From Akkermansia muciniphila (GTDB taxonomy: Bacteria; Verrucomicrobiota; Verrucomicrobiia; Limisphaerales; UBA9464), in assembly GCA_945873715.1 (NCBI GenBank), contig CAMCFL010000001.1, positions 1-28,901 of the forward strand: a DNA stretch of 28,901 bases, in the 5' to 3' direction. Positions 2,791 through 27,266 of the stretch are shown here, one piece after another (position 1 is the stretch's first letter; every line of letters begins with the position of its first letter). The notes under the pieces are model-generated. The model was not told where the DNA came from and did no database searches. It saw only the letters and a program-made list of their open reading frames with translations. A program made the position numbers and the translations under genes.

Positions 2791-2904
2791 GGGGGCAACT
2801 TGGGTGGGTTGTCACGGTTGCAGGCCCGCTGCCCTCAGCGGGCGTCTCCTCATCGCCGCCTGTGGGCGGGTGGACTGCCTCCGTGACCGACTCAGGATGT
2901 CGTT
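2791..2904. mobile_element. 114-bp MITE/REPIN composite element, degenerate copy
   Basis: 29-nt arm GGGGGCAACTTGGGTGGGTTGTCACGGTT, 59-nt core at 2820-2878, then a 26-nt arm. Colinear with the 4688-4801 copy in the opposite orientation. Confidence 0.75.
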
Positions 2905-4644: not shown

Positions 4645-4687
4645 ACCGGCCTCCGGTCGAGGCAAACTCCACCACCCCGGAGCAACG

Positions 4688-4801
4688 GGGTGCATCCTGA
4701 GTTGGTCGTGGATGTAGGCCGCCTGCCCTCAGGCGGCGATGGAAAAGCGCCCGCTGAGGGCAGCGGGCCTACATTCGTGACAACCAGCTCAAGAGGCACC
4801 C
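4688..4801. mobile_element. 114-bp MITE/REPIN composite element, intact copy with perfect 9-bp TSD
   Basis: Ends are GGGTGCATCCTGAG...CTCAAGAGGCACCC. The core at 4714-4772 has two inverted GTAG hairpins. GGAGCAACG flanks it at 4679-4687 and 4802-4810. It lies between convergent genes. Confidence 0.85.
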
Positions 4802-4885
4802 GGAGCAACGGACCCTCGTTGGCTCAACGAATCCGGATCGTGGTTGCCGTAGGTTCGTGGTGGTTCAAACCGGCCTGGCAGCCCG

Positions 4886-8534: not shown

Positions 8535-8648
8535 GGGCGCATCTTGAGTTTGTTGTCACCGTCGTAGACCTGTTGCCCTCAGCGGGCGGTTCCTCACCGC
8601 CGCCTGAGGGCAGGCGGCCTACATCCATGGCAAACTCAAGATGCCCCC
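8535..8648. mobile_element. 114-bp MITE/REPIN composite element
   Basis: Ends are GGGCGCATCTTGAG...CTCAAGATGCCCCC. Flanks TTCGGCGAC and CCCGGTGAC match at 6/9, consistent with an eroded TSD. Confidence 0.85.
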
Positions 8649-9597: not shown

Positions 9598-12500
9598 ATG
9601 CCCCTACCTCCACATCGTGCTTCGGCGGCGCAAGGCCTGACTCCTGAGTCGGCGGTGGCTGTAGGCCGCCTGCCCTCAGGCGGCGATCTGGCAACGCCCG
9701 CTGGGGGCAGCGGGCCTACCATTCAACGCACCGCGTGGTGGGCGTTGGCAGTGGCGCTGACGATCATCCTCCAGGGAACCTGCCTCGCCGCCGGTGCCAC
9801 GGCGCGGGGTGACAACGGTCGGACCGGGGTTTCCCCAGCAGGTCCAGCGGGCTCCCTGAAGCCGGCTTGGTCCATCGATTCCGGCCTGCCCGCCCCGGCC
9901 TGGGCAGGAGAGGCCCGCGGGAGCCTGTGGCAGAAGATCAGCCAGTCTTTCGTTCCCCGGGCCGCCGATGATCTCGCTCCGGTCCCGCTGGTCGCCGACG
10001 GCCTCGTCGTGTTCGCCACCACCCGCGATGAGGTGCGCTGCGTCGATCGTGATACCGGCCGGCTCCGGTGGTCCCACTGGTGCGCCGGTCCGGTCCGTTA
10101 CGCCCCGATGATCGATGGGGATCAGGTGTTGGTGGGTTCGGACGACGGTTGCATCCATGCGTTGGATCGACTGACAGGCCAGCAACGGTGGCGCGTCCGG
10201 ATCGGCCCTGAGGCACCCTGGATCTCCGGCAATGGCCGGCTTATCCCTCCACATCCAGTCCGCACCGGGCTGCTGGTTTCCGATGGGGTGATCTACGCCA
10301 CGGCCGGACTGTTTCCCCTGGAGGGGACCTACCTCGTCGCCCTGGAGACCGCCGATGGACACCTCCGTTGGCGACGCAACCTGGGCAACGTTTCCCCGCA
10401 GGGTTATCTGGTGGAAGCCGGCGCAGACCTGATCGTTCCCAACGGGCGCGCTGCGGCGCGGTTGTACCGGAAGGACGACGGCACCTTCCGCCGGGAACTG
10501 GGCCCGGCCACCGGCACGCTGGCGGTCGTGTCCGGAGAGGAGACCTTCGCCGGCCCCGGTGCCACGGGTGCCATCACCGGAGGCGGGACCAAGCCAGGAG
10601 CCAAGGTGGTCTCCTATCCCGGTCGGCATCTGGCGGTCACCCCCGCGCTGAGCGTGCTGGTGAACGAACGCGAGATCCTGGCGCTCGATCGTGCCGTCCT
10701 GCGCAGCAGCGGCGGGGATCTCGCCCGCGCCTTGCGTTGGAAACGATCCCTGCCCGGGGCGGGTGCGCTGATGATTGCCGGCCGTCGCGTCTATGTTGGC
10801 ACGGGCGAAGGCATTTCGGTCTTCGACCTCGAATCGGGCGAACCCCGGGAAACGCTTCCGCTCGCCGGGAACGTGGTCGGCCTGGCGGCCGATGCCGTCT
10901 CCGTCATCGCCACCACGGCCGACGGACGGGTGCATGCCTTCCTGGTGTCTCCGCGGGAAGGGTCCCTCCCTGCACCCGCTGGAATCCCGTCGGCGAGCGC
11001 GACCGCTGGAACGCCCGTTCCGGAGCTGTCGGATTGGGTGGGGACGTTGTCGTCCCCCCGTGGATGGGCCCTCTGGTGCGGCCCGGACGATCCCGTGTCC
11101 CGGTTCCCGGCGCTGATCACAGGGTCGGAACTGCATTGGATCTTTGCCGTGACCGAGGCGCAGGCACCGGCCCTGCGCCAGACCCTGGCGGCCCGGGGAT
11201 GGCTGGGCACACGGGCCGCCGTCATCGGACGTCGGGCGGATGGTTCGGTTCCCGTTGCCGATCACCTCTTCAATCTGGTGGTCGCCGATGATCTCTCCCC
11301 GGCGGAATCGGCCCGTCTGGTCTGTCCTGCTCCCTCCGGTGCCGTGGTCCGGTCCGGGAAGGTTTCCCGCGTGGAAGCGGATCCGCGCACCGGCCGCTGG
11401 ACCCACCAGTACGGCACCGCGGGAAACACCTGTGCGACGGAGCAGTCGATGAACGGGGCTCCGCGGCTCCAGTGGTTCGGCGGGCATGGACCGGAACGCA
11501 TGCCTGATCGGCACACCCGCGGACACGCGCCCCTGGCTGCCGCCGGAGCGGTGGTGTCGGTGGCGGAGAATGGATTGATCGGGACCGATGCCCGCAACGG
11601 CACGGTGCGTTGGCAGGTGGAGTTGCCCGATTCGATGCGCTACGCGATGCCCTACGATGCCGGTCATGTGGTGCTGGGCGAAGACGGTCGCCGCGTCTGG
11701 GCCGCGGTCGGCGGGGAATTGTGGGAGATCGAGACCCGCCTCGGGACGGTGGGTCGCAAGGTTCCTTCCCCGGGCACCGGCGAGTCGTGGGGATGGGTGG
11801 CGCGCGACGCCGGAACTCTCTTCGGAAGTTCGGCGCGACCCACCGCCGCCCGTACCCGGAAGGAATATGACCTGGTGGATCTGGAGTACCGATCCGGCCG
11901 GCCATTGGTGTGTTCACTCAGCCTGTTCCGACTGGACGACGGTGCCCTGGCTCCCCGATGGCGGGTGGGGTCCACCGGGGCCTGGGTGAACCCGACCCTG
12001 TGCGTCGCCGGCGGCCGGGTGTTTGCCATCGAGGCGATCGGTCCCAAGGCACGGGCGGATCGCACCGGACGCCTGACCTGTGCGGCGGTCCTGGAAGACG
12101 CCCGGGTCGTCTGTCTCGATGCCGACACCGGACGTCGCCTGTGGGAGCAACCCCTGAAATGGCCTGAAGCGGAGGATATCCTCGGGCTCGCGGTCGCCGG
12201 GGATCGGTTGATCCTCTCCTGCGCCCGCAGCGCCGGTCCGCAGGCTGCCTATCACCTGCGATGCTGGCGGACGGCGGATGGTGGTGAGGAATGGCGGTCG
12301 TCGGGGCTCAACCCGATTCACGATCTGTTCCACGGGCAACAGGTGAAACGGCCGGTGATCGCCGGCGACAAGGTGGCCTTTGAAAGCGATCTCTTCCAGA
12401 TCGCGTCGGGGCGACGATGGGTTCCTCCCGCGGCGGCGGGCGACTGGATCCTCAAACGTCCCGGCCACGCCTGCGGCGGAATGACCGGAGGCCAGGAGGG

Positions 12501-14935: not shown

Positions 14936-15037
14936 GGGTGCATCTGGCGTGGGTCATGGATGTAGGCCGCCTGCCCTCCGGCGGCGATGAGGCAACGCCC
15001 GCTGAGGGCAGCGGGCCTACAACCCTGACCACAAACT
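14936..15037. mobile_element. MITE/REPIN composite copy, right end truncated
   Basis: 26-nt arm from GGGTGCATC, core at 14962-15020, and a partial right arm ending TGACCACAAACT. Confidence 0.8.
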
Positions 15038-15250
15038 TTGCAAGTGAGGGAAGTTCAGCCAGGGATGGCTTCGTGATCTGCGCCATCTGCGGAGGGATCT
15101 CCGGTTTCCAGGATCACCGTGACGGTCGGTGGACCTCCCGGTCCAACGCCCCAATCAGCCATGGAGACCGGGAACTCGGAGACGGGGAAAGAAGCGTCGC
15201 AGGGCGGTGCTTGCCGTTGGAACATTCCCGGAGCAGCATTGGCAATTCCT

Positions 15251-17634: not shown

Positions 17635-17644
17635 GGGATGAGCT

Positions 17645-17729
17645 GTAGGCCCGCTGCCCTCAGCGGGCGGTGCCTGATCGCCGCCTGAGGGCAGGCAGCC
17701 TACACCCATGATCTACCTGGGACGCGCCA
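17645..17729. mobile_element. MITE/REPIN composite copy lacking its left arm
   Basis: 59-nt core at 17645-17703 plus a degenerate 26-nt arm, abutting the BIME-like array. Confidence 0.75.
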
Positions 17730-23924: not shown

Positions 23925-23938
23925 GGCGCGGCTCGGAT

Positions 23939-24023
23939 GTAGGCCCGCTGCCCTCAGCGGGCGTTTCCTCATCGCCGGCTGAGGGCAGGCGGCCTGCATC
24001 CGTGACCGACTCAAGTTGCGCCC
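23939..24023. mobile_element. MITE/REPIN composite copy lacking its left arm
   Basis: Core at 23939-23997 plus the 26-nt arm ATCCGTGACCGACTCAAGTTGCGCCC. Confidence 0.8.
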
Positions 24024-25037: not shown

Positions 25038-25151
25038 AGGCGCCTCTTGAGTTGGTTGTCACGGTGGTAGGCCCGCTGCCCTCAGCGGGCGTTGCCTCAT
25101 CGCCGCCTGAGGACAGGCGGCCTACATCCATGACCAACTCAGGAGGTACCC
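25038..25151. mobile_element. 114-bp MITE/REPIN composite element with eroded TSD
   Basis: 29+59+26 nt layout. Flanks CTGGTAGGC (25029-25037) and TTGGTAAGC (25152-25160) match at 7/9. Confidence 0.85.
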
Positions 25152-25541: not shown

Positions 25542-25580
25542 GCGCTTTGGCTGCAGGCCCGCTGCCCCTCCATCGGAGAA

Positions 25581-25611
25581 GATCAGACTGATCGGACTGA
25601 TCAGTCTGATC
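25581..25611. repeat. Palindromic 9-mer tandem (GATCAGACT)n
   Basis: GATCAGACTGATC-GGACT-GATCAGTCTGATC, a perfect 13-bp inverted repeat. A REP fragment lies just upstream at 25553-25570. Confidence 0.8.
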
Positions 25612-25613
25612 GA

Positions 25614-25718
25614 GGGTGCATCTTGACACTGCCCCCGCCGGAAGCCGCGGGTGTGCTCTACGCCGGAGGCGTACCGCACACCCGCGGTCTCAGGCGGGGG
25701 CAATCTCAAGATCCGCCC
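25614..25718. mobile_element. 105-bp MITE-like element with the same termini as the 114-bp family but a different internal hairpin
   Basis: GGGTGCATCTTGA...TCAAGATCCGCCC ends. Nested stems at 25630-39/25693-702, 25645-56/25676-87 and 25659-64/25668-73. Confidence 0.65.
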
Positions 25719-25790: not shown

Positions 25791-25866
25791 GGGGTCTTAG
25801 CTCAGTTGGTAGAGCGTCTCGTTCGCAATGAGAAGGTCAGGGGTTCGAATCCCCTAGGCTCCACCA
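25791..25866 (+). tRNA. tRNA-Ala(CGC)
   Basis: 76-nt cloverleaf with acceptor stem GGGGTCT/AGGCTCC containing G3:U70, anticodon loop TT-CGC-AA, T-loop TTCGAAT, discriminator A and encoded CCA. Confidence 0.97.
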
Positions 25867-27152: not shown

Positions 27153-27266
27153 GGGTGCATCTTGAGTGGGTCAGGGATGTAGGCCGCCTGCCCTCAGGCG
27201 GCGATGTGAAAGCGCCCGCTGAGGGCAGCGGGCCTACATGCGTGACCACAAACTCAGGATGCCCCC
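27153..27266. mobile_element. 114-bp MITE/REPIN composite element
   Basis: GGGTGCATCTTGAG...CTCAGGATGCCCCC with an intact core at 27179-27237. No TSD is recognisable. Confidence 0.85.

Follow-up and report, generated by a model that had tools for sequence, protein, structure and literature searches.

The window analysed here, a 28,901-nt stretch of DNA (contig CAMCFL010000001.1, positions 1 to 28,901), carries at positions 4688-4801 a 114-nt element that in all likelihood is a transposable element of the miniature inverted-repeat type (MITE) whose cargo is a complete doublet of GTAG-headed repetitive extragenic palindromic (REP) units, a REPIN of the kind associated with REP-associated tyrosine transposases (RAYTs), with two 19-nt terminal inverted repeats (TIRs) as its only transposon-derived parts. 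An initial annotation of this DNA had proposed a REPIN spread by a DDE transposase, or an element using both enzyme types. A MITE that makes target site duplications (TSDs) and encloses a real REP doublet is what we found as well, while the DDE type of the transposase is a part of that proposal that we infer from the target duplication.

The element is bounded by 9-bp target duplications

The window is contig 1 of a 3.6-Mb metagenome-assembled genome (MAG; G000, 573 contigs, 64.7% G+C, 67% complete, smallest contig 3 kb) of an organism that was detected in lake metagenome runs of four studies. A profile built from six window copies of the element was run over this assembly and gave 628 matches, which resolved into 379 non-overlapping loci, 150 of them full length, at a density of about 105 copies per Mb. 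When 146 full copies were aligned together with their flanks, column conservation was about 90% inside the element and 35-40% outside, the change falling within one base at both ends.

To detect target duplications in these 146 copies, the k bases before the element were compared with the k bases after it for k = 2-12, against permuted pairs. Flanking 9-mers match at 5.32 of 9 positions on average versus 2.60 ± 0.11 for permuted pairs (z about 25), and the signal is confined to k = 9, with none at k = 2-8 or 10-12. The 9-mers are identical in 21 of the 146 copies and match at 8 or more positions in 42; the distribution is bimodal, 63 copies having at least 7 matches and 63 at most 4. The duplicated 9-mers are diverse and have no sequence in common among copies, and are therefore target sequence and not element sequence. 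Within the window, the flanking matches reported in the initial annotation (9/9 at 4688, 7/9 at 25038, 6/9 at 8535 and none visible at 2791 or 27153) were exact, the last two copies scoring 3/9 and 2/9.

Empty sites were sought by rebuilding, for each copy, the left flank, one 9-mer and the right flank, and matching the result to the same genome. The copy at C68:119-232, with duplication GTGAGAACA, interrupts a member of another repeat family, and its rebuilt empty site gives an ungapped alignment of 109 nt (88% identity) with C464:3097-3205 and with about 30 further uninterrupted members of that family, which hold one GTAGAACA-type 9-mer, GTGAGAACA, at the insertion point. Matches of lower identity at C57:9462-9560, C18:6679-6792, C39 and C78 give a similar picture. 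This evidence is paralogous, the public lake-metagenome contigs being short unitigs that end inside every repeat and are uninformative on alleles. The initial annotation had named three outcomes that would speak against it: flanking 9-mers at chance level, empty sites lacking a single 9-mer, and the lack of any insertion sequence with the same termini (see below). Genome-wide the flanks lie far above chance, and the paralogous empty sites carry one copy. Because of the sharp edges, the 19-nt inverted ends, the duplication specific to k = 9 and the paralogous empty sites with a single 9-mer, the shell behaves as a MITE.

The core is a REP doublet of a family that flanks RAYT genes

Arms of 26 nt (4688-4713) and 29 nt (4773-4801) on either side of a 59-nt core (4714-4772), the division originally given, are present in this copy (Table 1). 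The two inverted GTAG hairpins described in the core are each self-complementary; their stems differ at two positions, and the changes on opposite sides match, which makes them compensatory as had been claimed. The termini, proposed to be 13-14 bp, are longer, the consensus inverted ends being perfect over 19 nt. Doublets that lack these ends show partial conservation for about 5-7 nt beyond the GTAG in the left inner arm and for the first 4-5 nt of the right inner arm. Because conservation in end-less doublets extends outside the GTAG in this way, the REP doublet unit spans about positions 20-92 of the element, and the shell contributes just the two 19-nt ends.

REP unit A is present in the genome in 145 exact and 292 near-exact copies (at most 3 mismatches) and REP unit B in 185 exact and 329 near-exact copies; all but 8 of these units, both types included, fall within the 379 loci. 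We looked for the hairpin family GTAG-GCCnnnTG-CCCY-CAnnnGGC, as pattern GTAGGCCNNNTGCCCYCANNNGGC, in 121 genomes sampled across the order and found it in 27, with all controls at 0. The stems of the matches co-vary in many variants, all of them self-complementary. This genome has 378 matches, and the next highest count among the 120 other genomes is 105. Against the same-genus genomes, which include the sole complete genome of the genus (G008), the 114-mer matches with its core alone (positions 24-54, 26-86 and 61-86), and the doublets of G008 are all shell-less, lie in tandem arrays (L067-L069) and have their own pair of stems.

Hairpins of this family accompany RAYT genes in relatives. Weak Y1-transposase matches in genomes G034 (L100) and G064 (L101) sit exactly amid such hairpins, and their products are homologous RAYT-type proteins with the HUH motif MPDHIHLI, WRWQ..HDHK and YxCLNPV..LV. 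Within the genus, G010 has an intact 257-aa homologue (L103) and G008 a split one (L104), both with hairpins on both flanks, and G013 also has a split homologue. The five closest public homologues (L190-L194; 57-59% identity in four of the five) come from MAGs of Verrucomicrobiales or Verrucomicrobiota and are hairpin-flanked likewise, and some GTAG hairpin lies beside the gene in 47 of the 80 loci that were fetched. Such relationships put the organism within Verrucomicrobiota. The suggestion that RAYT genes flanked by these REPs should be looked for thus proved fruitful in G010, G008, G034, G064 and the public MAGs, though not in the assembly that holds the window. Because RAYT genes of relatives are flanked by the same hairpin family, the link to a RAYT that defines a REP family is present there, and judged by sequence the core can be regarded as a real RAYT-associated GTAG REP doublet.

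The RAYT genes of G034 and G064, two genomes of different families, have a further feature. Their reading frames (L100:1446-2402 and L101:3799-5043) stay open through one or two GTAG-GCC REP units, which lie between the HUH motif and the C-terminal YxCLNPV and translate as VGRLPPAGV and similar; the G010 homologue (L103:1483-2256) is without such an in-frame insert.

The window's own assembly holds two other Y1 genes, on contigs C282 and C378. Both were considered as the cognate RAYT and rejected, as they are flanked by other repeats. The C378 gene (L002:814-1863) encodes a 349-aa RAYT-like protein whose best match, below cut-off, is NCBIfam REP_Tyr_transpos; it is bracketed by a 26-nt inverted repeat, 96% complementary, instead of REPs, an arrangement that resembles the 'TIRYT' of Di Nocera et al.

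The same ends enclose other cargos

Allowing up to 3 mismatches, we counted the 19-nt end 289 times in this genome; in 16 further species of the genus the counts were 0-5, at control level. The outermost 13 nt of this end, GGGYGCATCTTGA, also start about 35 other elements of this genome, where they continue as CACTGCCCCC, and these elements have at least four or five different interiors; the one at C83:4211-4396 has GGTCAGTCC on both flanks. The complete genome G008 has 64 exact 13-mers versus 0 for the reversed control, every fetched occurrence lying in a MITE of about 136 nt or its longer relatives, and the 9-mers flanking these MITEs match at 4.8 of 9 positions versus 2.67 ± 0.29, again at k = 9 alone. 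Because elements that combine GGGYGCATCTTGA with other cargos also show 9-bp duplications, the 13-nt ends and the 9-bp stagger go together irrespective of cargo.

One of these cargos is again a REP doublet. A second composite MITE of about 300 nt, found in C36 (ending at about 6037) and at C240:4551-4848, has sister-type ends, GGGCGCATCTTGACACTGCCCCC, and its C36 copy is flanked by a 9/9 duplication, GCGGGAATC. The interior is an inverted pair of a different, unrelated REP, GTAG-CCCACAGC, around a central hairpin. This REP has 18 copies in the genome, and its G008 homologue flanks an IS200-like Y1 gene.

These findings lead us to a tentative generalisation, which we put forward as a possibility only and not as the expected outcome. 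The 13-19-nt end may act as a portable 'mobilisation tag', one which in this genome has acquired REP doublets from two or more different RAYT families as well as other hairpin cargos. A REPIN so tagged would gain a second, faster and RAYT-independent route of spread, its hairpins staying under RAYT- or host-driven constraint as the ends decay. A non-autonomous element would in this way travel within another, and two unrelated transposition chemistries would act on the same 114 nt.

Other sequences were seen in association with such ends. The Y1 gene on C282 (L001:543-989) encodes a 148-aa IS200-like transposase and has another abundant repeat, TACGCCGGAGGCGTTYCAGCRATTAGCCCGGGGT..., on both flanks; this module is also found as cargo of several sister-type MITEs. 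In G008, a gene for a group II intron reverse transcriptase/maturase (L054:869-2251; RVT_1 4e-39, GIIM 4e-13) starts some 540 nt inward of a sister-type MITE end that lacks its partner, which looks like an intron inserted in the MITE hairpin. On C328, an end-like sequence, GGGAGCATCTTGACGG, lies at about 1223-1235, some 60 nt upstream of the enolase start codon. Because the shared end contains TTGAC, single ends might serve as putative -35-like promoter boxes.

Shell and core decay differently

We classified 239 well-kept doublets lying away from contig ends: 133 have both 19-nt ends, 60 have one and 46 have none. The best 19-nt end match within the adjacent 40 nt is bimodal, at either 15-19 or 7-10, the latter being the level of random DNA. 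Full copies diverge from the consensus by 2-8% in the REP units, 11-16% in the ends and about 19-20% in the linker, the hairpins being 2-5 times better conserved than ends and linker even at hairpin A/T positions. The variable positions of the ends are those with A or T in the consensus, which drift mostly to G or C. Mirrored end positions never co-vary and no compensatory change between the ends was seen; because they never change together, the outer stem is in free decay, and the hairpins are maintained by selection or homogenisation. A separate sublineage of shell-less doublets was considered and dropped, just about 4 copies with a distinct linker, GGTGGGAG, being too few. Decayed composites are present in G005 (full length, 83% identity), G007 and G014, and because of these the composite is taken to predate this species, and it expanded in this genome only.

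Might the 38-nt palindromic shell instead have been a pre-existing dispersed target, into each centre of which a RAYT put a doublet, so that the 114-nt unit never moved whole? REP dimers within longer palindromes of Anabaena variabilis and Halothiobacillus neapolitanus have been read as targets (PMC3733652), the genus has palindromic MITEs whose outer ends are the same, and the variants of end and core are weakly linked. Shells of this subtype without a doublet are nearly absent, however: the 16-nt end has 277 matches, of which the 114-nt loci account for all but 13, most of these 13 being at contig ends or chance matches, and this account would require close to 100% occupancy of roughly 150-200 targets. 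Moreover, what the paralogous empty sites lack is the whole 114 nt and not the core alone, and linker and inner-arm lengths are uniform, the linker being 11 nt in 121 of the 133 full doublets. We consider this account improbable; insertion into a target is plausible for a single founding event, not for the spread.

Movement by a RAYT alone would make the whole 114 nt a long REPIN, with the ends as its outer hairpin and the 9-mers as a side effect. The element is indeed predicted to fold into a single long hairpin (as DNA -40 kcal/mol, z = -8.5; as RNA -82.6 kcal/mol, z = -9.3), conserved flanks are also a feature of classical REPINs, and about 43% of the copies are without a duplication. Transposition by HUH/Y1 enzymes of the IS200/IS605 type, however, makes no target duplication, whereas the duplication here is specific to 9 bp. 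The same 13-nt ends and 9-bp duplication bound unrelated cargos, the lack of co-variation between mirrored end positions means that the outer stem is not kept as a structure, and in relatives both doublet and RAYT occur without these ends. There is very little probability left for this account.

Gene context was taken from crude gene calling that covered 72% of the genome. Of the 146 full copies, 135 fall outside the genes so called (27 of these 135 are too close to a contig end for classification), their orientation with respect to neighbouring genes is unbiased (34 versus 31), and by this crude call they show no preference for gene 3' ends, convergent spacers being least occupied. It is accordingly most unlikely that the element is a terminator, mRNA stabiliser, protein-binding site or other structural or regulatory element whose copy number reflects host selection rather than transposition, even though its hairpins are less diverged than its ends and linker and such roles are described for enterobacterial REPs, since duplications and empty sites show insertion; a function acquired after insertion is possible and would not explain the spread.

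Results that weigh against a composite MITE

Several results count against the interpretation of the element as a MITE with a REPIN as cargo. Full copies without a duplication (at most 4/9) number 63 of 146 (about 43%), although their ends are just slightly more diverged than those of copies that keep it; many copies have therefore lost their flanks through other events, or arrived another way. The variants of the ends are weakly linked to those of linker and core (best z = 3.7 over 140 pairs), and because this linkage is unclear, subfamily structure alone is no proof that the shell has in every case moved with the core. In the assembly that holds the window, which is 67% complete and has no contig below 3 kb, the cognate RAYT was not found.

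An autonomous insertion sequence (IS) with these ends was not found either. In the MAG, the search covered orphan ends and adjoining open reading frames on contigs of at least 3 kb. This negative is weak because the assembly is two-thirds complete and excludes contigs below 3 kb, and a multi-copy IS of 1-2 kb would probably be missing from it. The complete genome G008 also has no IS with these ends, all 64 exact ends being those of MITEs. Transposase loci of PF01609, PF00872, PF03400, PF12762, ISKra4 and ISLre2 were searched; the PF01609, PF00872, ISKra4 and ISLre2 loci of the genus are without these ends, and none of the five genomes searched has an IS1 or IS1595 domain. In a metagenome scan, the 19-mer with a purine after it was matched only twice, both matches being due to chance.

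A 14-mer near a 10-copy PF01609 element of G008 was tried as a candidate and rejected, as it is internal to an unrelated 1.8-kb IS (L141-L145). This IS has ends GATCGGTGTTACC and 8-bp duplications, contains GGGCGCAGCTTGAC internally and is present in about 10 copies, 98-99% identical among the five compared.

Copies and neighbouring features in the window

The nine window copies listed in the initial annotation were all recovered by the profile search, with spans 2793-2900, 4689-4800, 8536-8647, 9640-9723, 14937-15045, 17643-17724, 23934-24021, 25039-25150 and 27154-27265 (feature boundaries in Table 1). The additional 'fragment' at 25553 is repeat sequence, as noted there, and turned out to be the remnant of one REP unit beside a different element. 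Between this remnant and a sister-type MITE, positions 25553-25613 hold a short palindromic array of GATCAGACTGATCGGACTGATCAGTCTGATC. The sister MITE lies 72 nt upstream of a tRNA gene (25791-25863), the only Rfam match in the window. The 114-nt elements are single and dispersed, and do not form the regular tandem arrays of alternating REPs that define bacterial interspersed mosaic elements (BIMEs).

Two 114-nt copies, at window 14936-15091 and C68:119-232, occupy the same position of another repeat family, directly after a CTCACC...GGTGAG hairpin and before a ATCTGCGCCATCTGCG tract. The identical position points either to a hot spot for insertion or to the joined unit having been duplicated.

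Table 1. Parts of the 114-nt element at 4688-4801, further copies and a sister element in the window.
Feature	Positions	Strand	Remarks
Left TSD copy, GGAGCAACG	4679-4687	.	Identical 9-mer at 4802-4810
Left TIR, 19 nt	4688-4706	+	Outermost 13 nt, GGGYGCATCTTGA, are the end common to other MITE families; sharp conservation edge
Inner left arm, CGTGGAT (consensus CATGGAT)	4707-4713	+	Assigned to the REP doublet unit, not the shell
REP unit A	4714-4737	+	GTAG head, 8-bp stem GCCGCCTG/CAGGCGGC, loop CCCT
Linker, 11 nt	4738-4748	+	Varies among copies
REP unit B	4749-4772	-	GTAG head, stem GCCCGCTG/CAGCGGGC, loop CCCT; forms the doublet with unit A, GTAG heads outside
Inner right arm, ATTCGTGACA	4773-4782	+	3 nt longer than inner left arm (consensus)
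Right TIR, 19 nt	4783-4801	-	
Right TSD copy	4802-4810	.	GGAGCAACG again
Full-length copy, diverged	2791-2904	-	Duplication gone (3/9)
Full-length copy	8535-8648	-	Flanking 9-mers 6/9
Copy with decayed left end	9635-9723	+	Right end absent
Copy adjoining another repeat	14936-15049	+	Right end abuts the ATCTGCGCCATCTGCG-type repeat family at the site where C68:119-232 interrupts that family
REP doublet without 19-nt ends	17643-17724	-	Beside a 195-bp tandem array
Copy truncated on one side	23934-24021	-	Doublet and single end
Full-length copy	25038-25151	-	Flanking 9-mers 7/9
Full-length copy	27153-27266	+	89% identity to the 4688 copy; duplication gone (2/9)
Sister MITE family member	25614-25718	+	Outer 13 nt shared (GGGTGCATCTTGA ... 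TCAAGATCCGCCC), inner end CACTGCCCCC, other hairpin cargo

Proposed mechanism and significance

A transposase acting in trans would bind the ends, whose outer 13 nt are common to sister MITEs, and insert the unit as a whole through cuts offset by 9 bp, from which the 9-bp duplication would result. The REP doublet would be much older; it occurs shell-less across the order and in relatives flanks its own HUH tyrosine transposase gene, the RAYT. It may have come between such ends in this genus, the likeliest route being that it inserted into a palindromic MITE of the same end family, at its centre. Carried as a passenger, it would then have multiplied to about 380 loci in this one lineage, a number several times higher than in any other genome searched. 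We infer both this origin of the composite and an amplification mainly via the end-dependent route.

REPINs are regarded as slow replicators that are inherited vertically and depend on one RAYT gene. If a MITE with target duplications has a REPIN as its cargo, this would explain a sudden rise of a REP family to hundreds of copies in one lineage, and would show, too, that RAYT activity is not necessarily mirrored in the abundance of REPs. With one 13-nt end on five or more cargos, these elements would be a defined system for the study of how MITEs acquire new interiors, and the transposase acting on the ends is a clear target for work on a complete genome of this lake Verrucomicrobiota lineage.

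Comparison with known systems

The GTAG-tagged REP superfamily was defined by Di Nocera et al. (2013; PMC3733652) and includes members from Planctomycetes and Verrucomicrobia. Known REPIN and GTAG REP-RAYT systems (Bertels and Rainey 2011; Nunvar 2010, PMC2817692; PMC3733652) share several traits with the core of the 114-nt element: the unit is a 24-nt hairpin, rich in GC and headed by GTAG; two units pair in inverted orientation, a short linker between them and the heads on the outside; copies number in the hundreds and are mostly found between genes; stems co-vary between lineages; and relatives have a hairpin-flanked RAYT gene. The core differs in lying within 19-nt inverted ends that are unrelated to the REP and flanked by 9-bp duplications, in having two REP units that are consistently unlike (a heterodimer), and in that the RAYT was not found in this assembly.

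The nearest precedents for the overall layout are A. variabilis GTAG-15 and H. neapolitanus CGTC-1, REP dimers inside longer palindromes that were called targets (PMC3733652). There too the dimer regularly occupies the centre of a palindrome that is longer and unrelated, and palindromes with no dimer are rare or absent. Duplications, empty sites and the sharing of ends were not examined in that work, whereas in the present family the outer palindrome marks where a mobile unit ends. Apart from this mention of REP dimers in two species, the opinion of the initial annotation that such an element had not been described was nearly right: a full-text search combining REPIN, MITE, RAYT and target-site duplication found no paper describing a REPIN as MITE cargo.

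The shell has its closest counterpart in MITEAba12 of Acinetobacter, a 113-nt MITE that has 16-nt ends and keeps its 9-bp duplications in 40% of copies (PMC6382973). The two elements are alike in length (113 versus 114 nt) and ends (16 versus 19 nt), in 9-bp duplications that survive in part (40% there, about 43-50% here) and in that similarity to any parent IS would be confined to the ends. MITEAba12 has an identified parent, ISAba12, an AT-rich unstructured core and a low copy number, in contrast to the REPIN core and about 105 copies per Mb found here. Correia/NEMIS, ERIC, RUP and Nezha elements (PMC3733652) are likewise small, palindromic, non-coding intergenic repeats with inverted ends that form long hairpins, but in none has the substrate of another, unrelated transposase family been reported to form the core. 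Best read as a REPIN that is the cargo of a transposon making target duplications, the composite joins two known kinds of element and is new as a combination.

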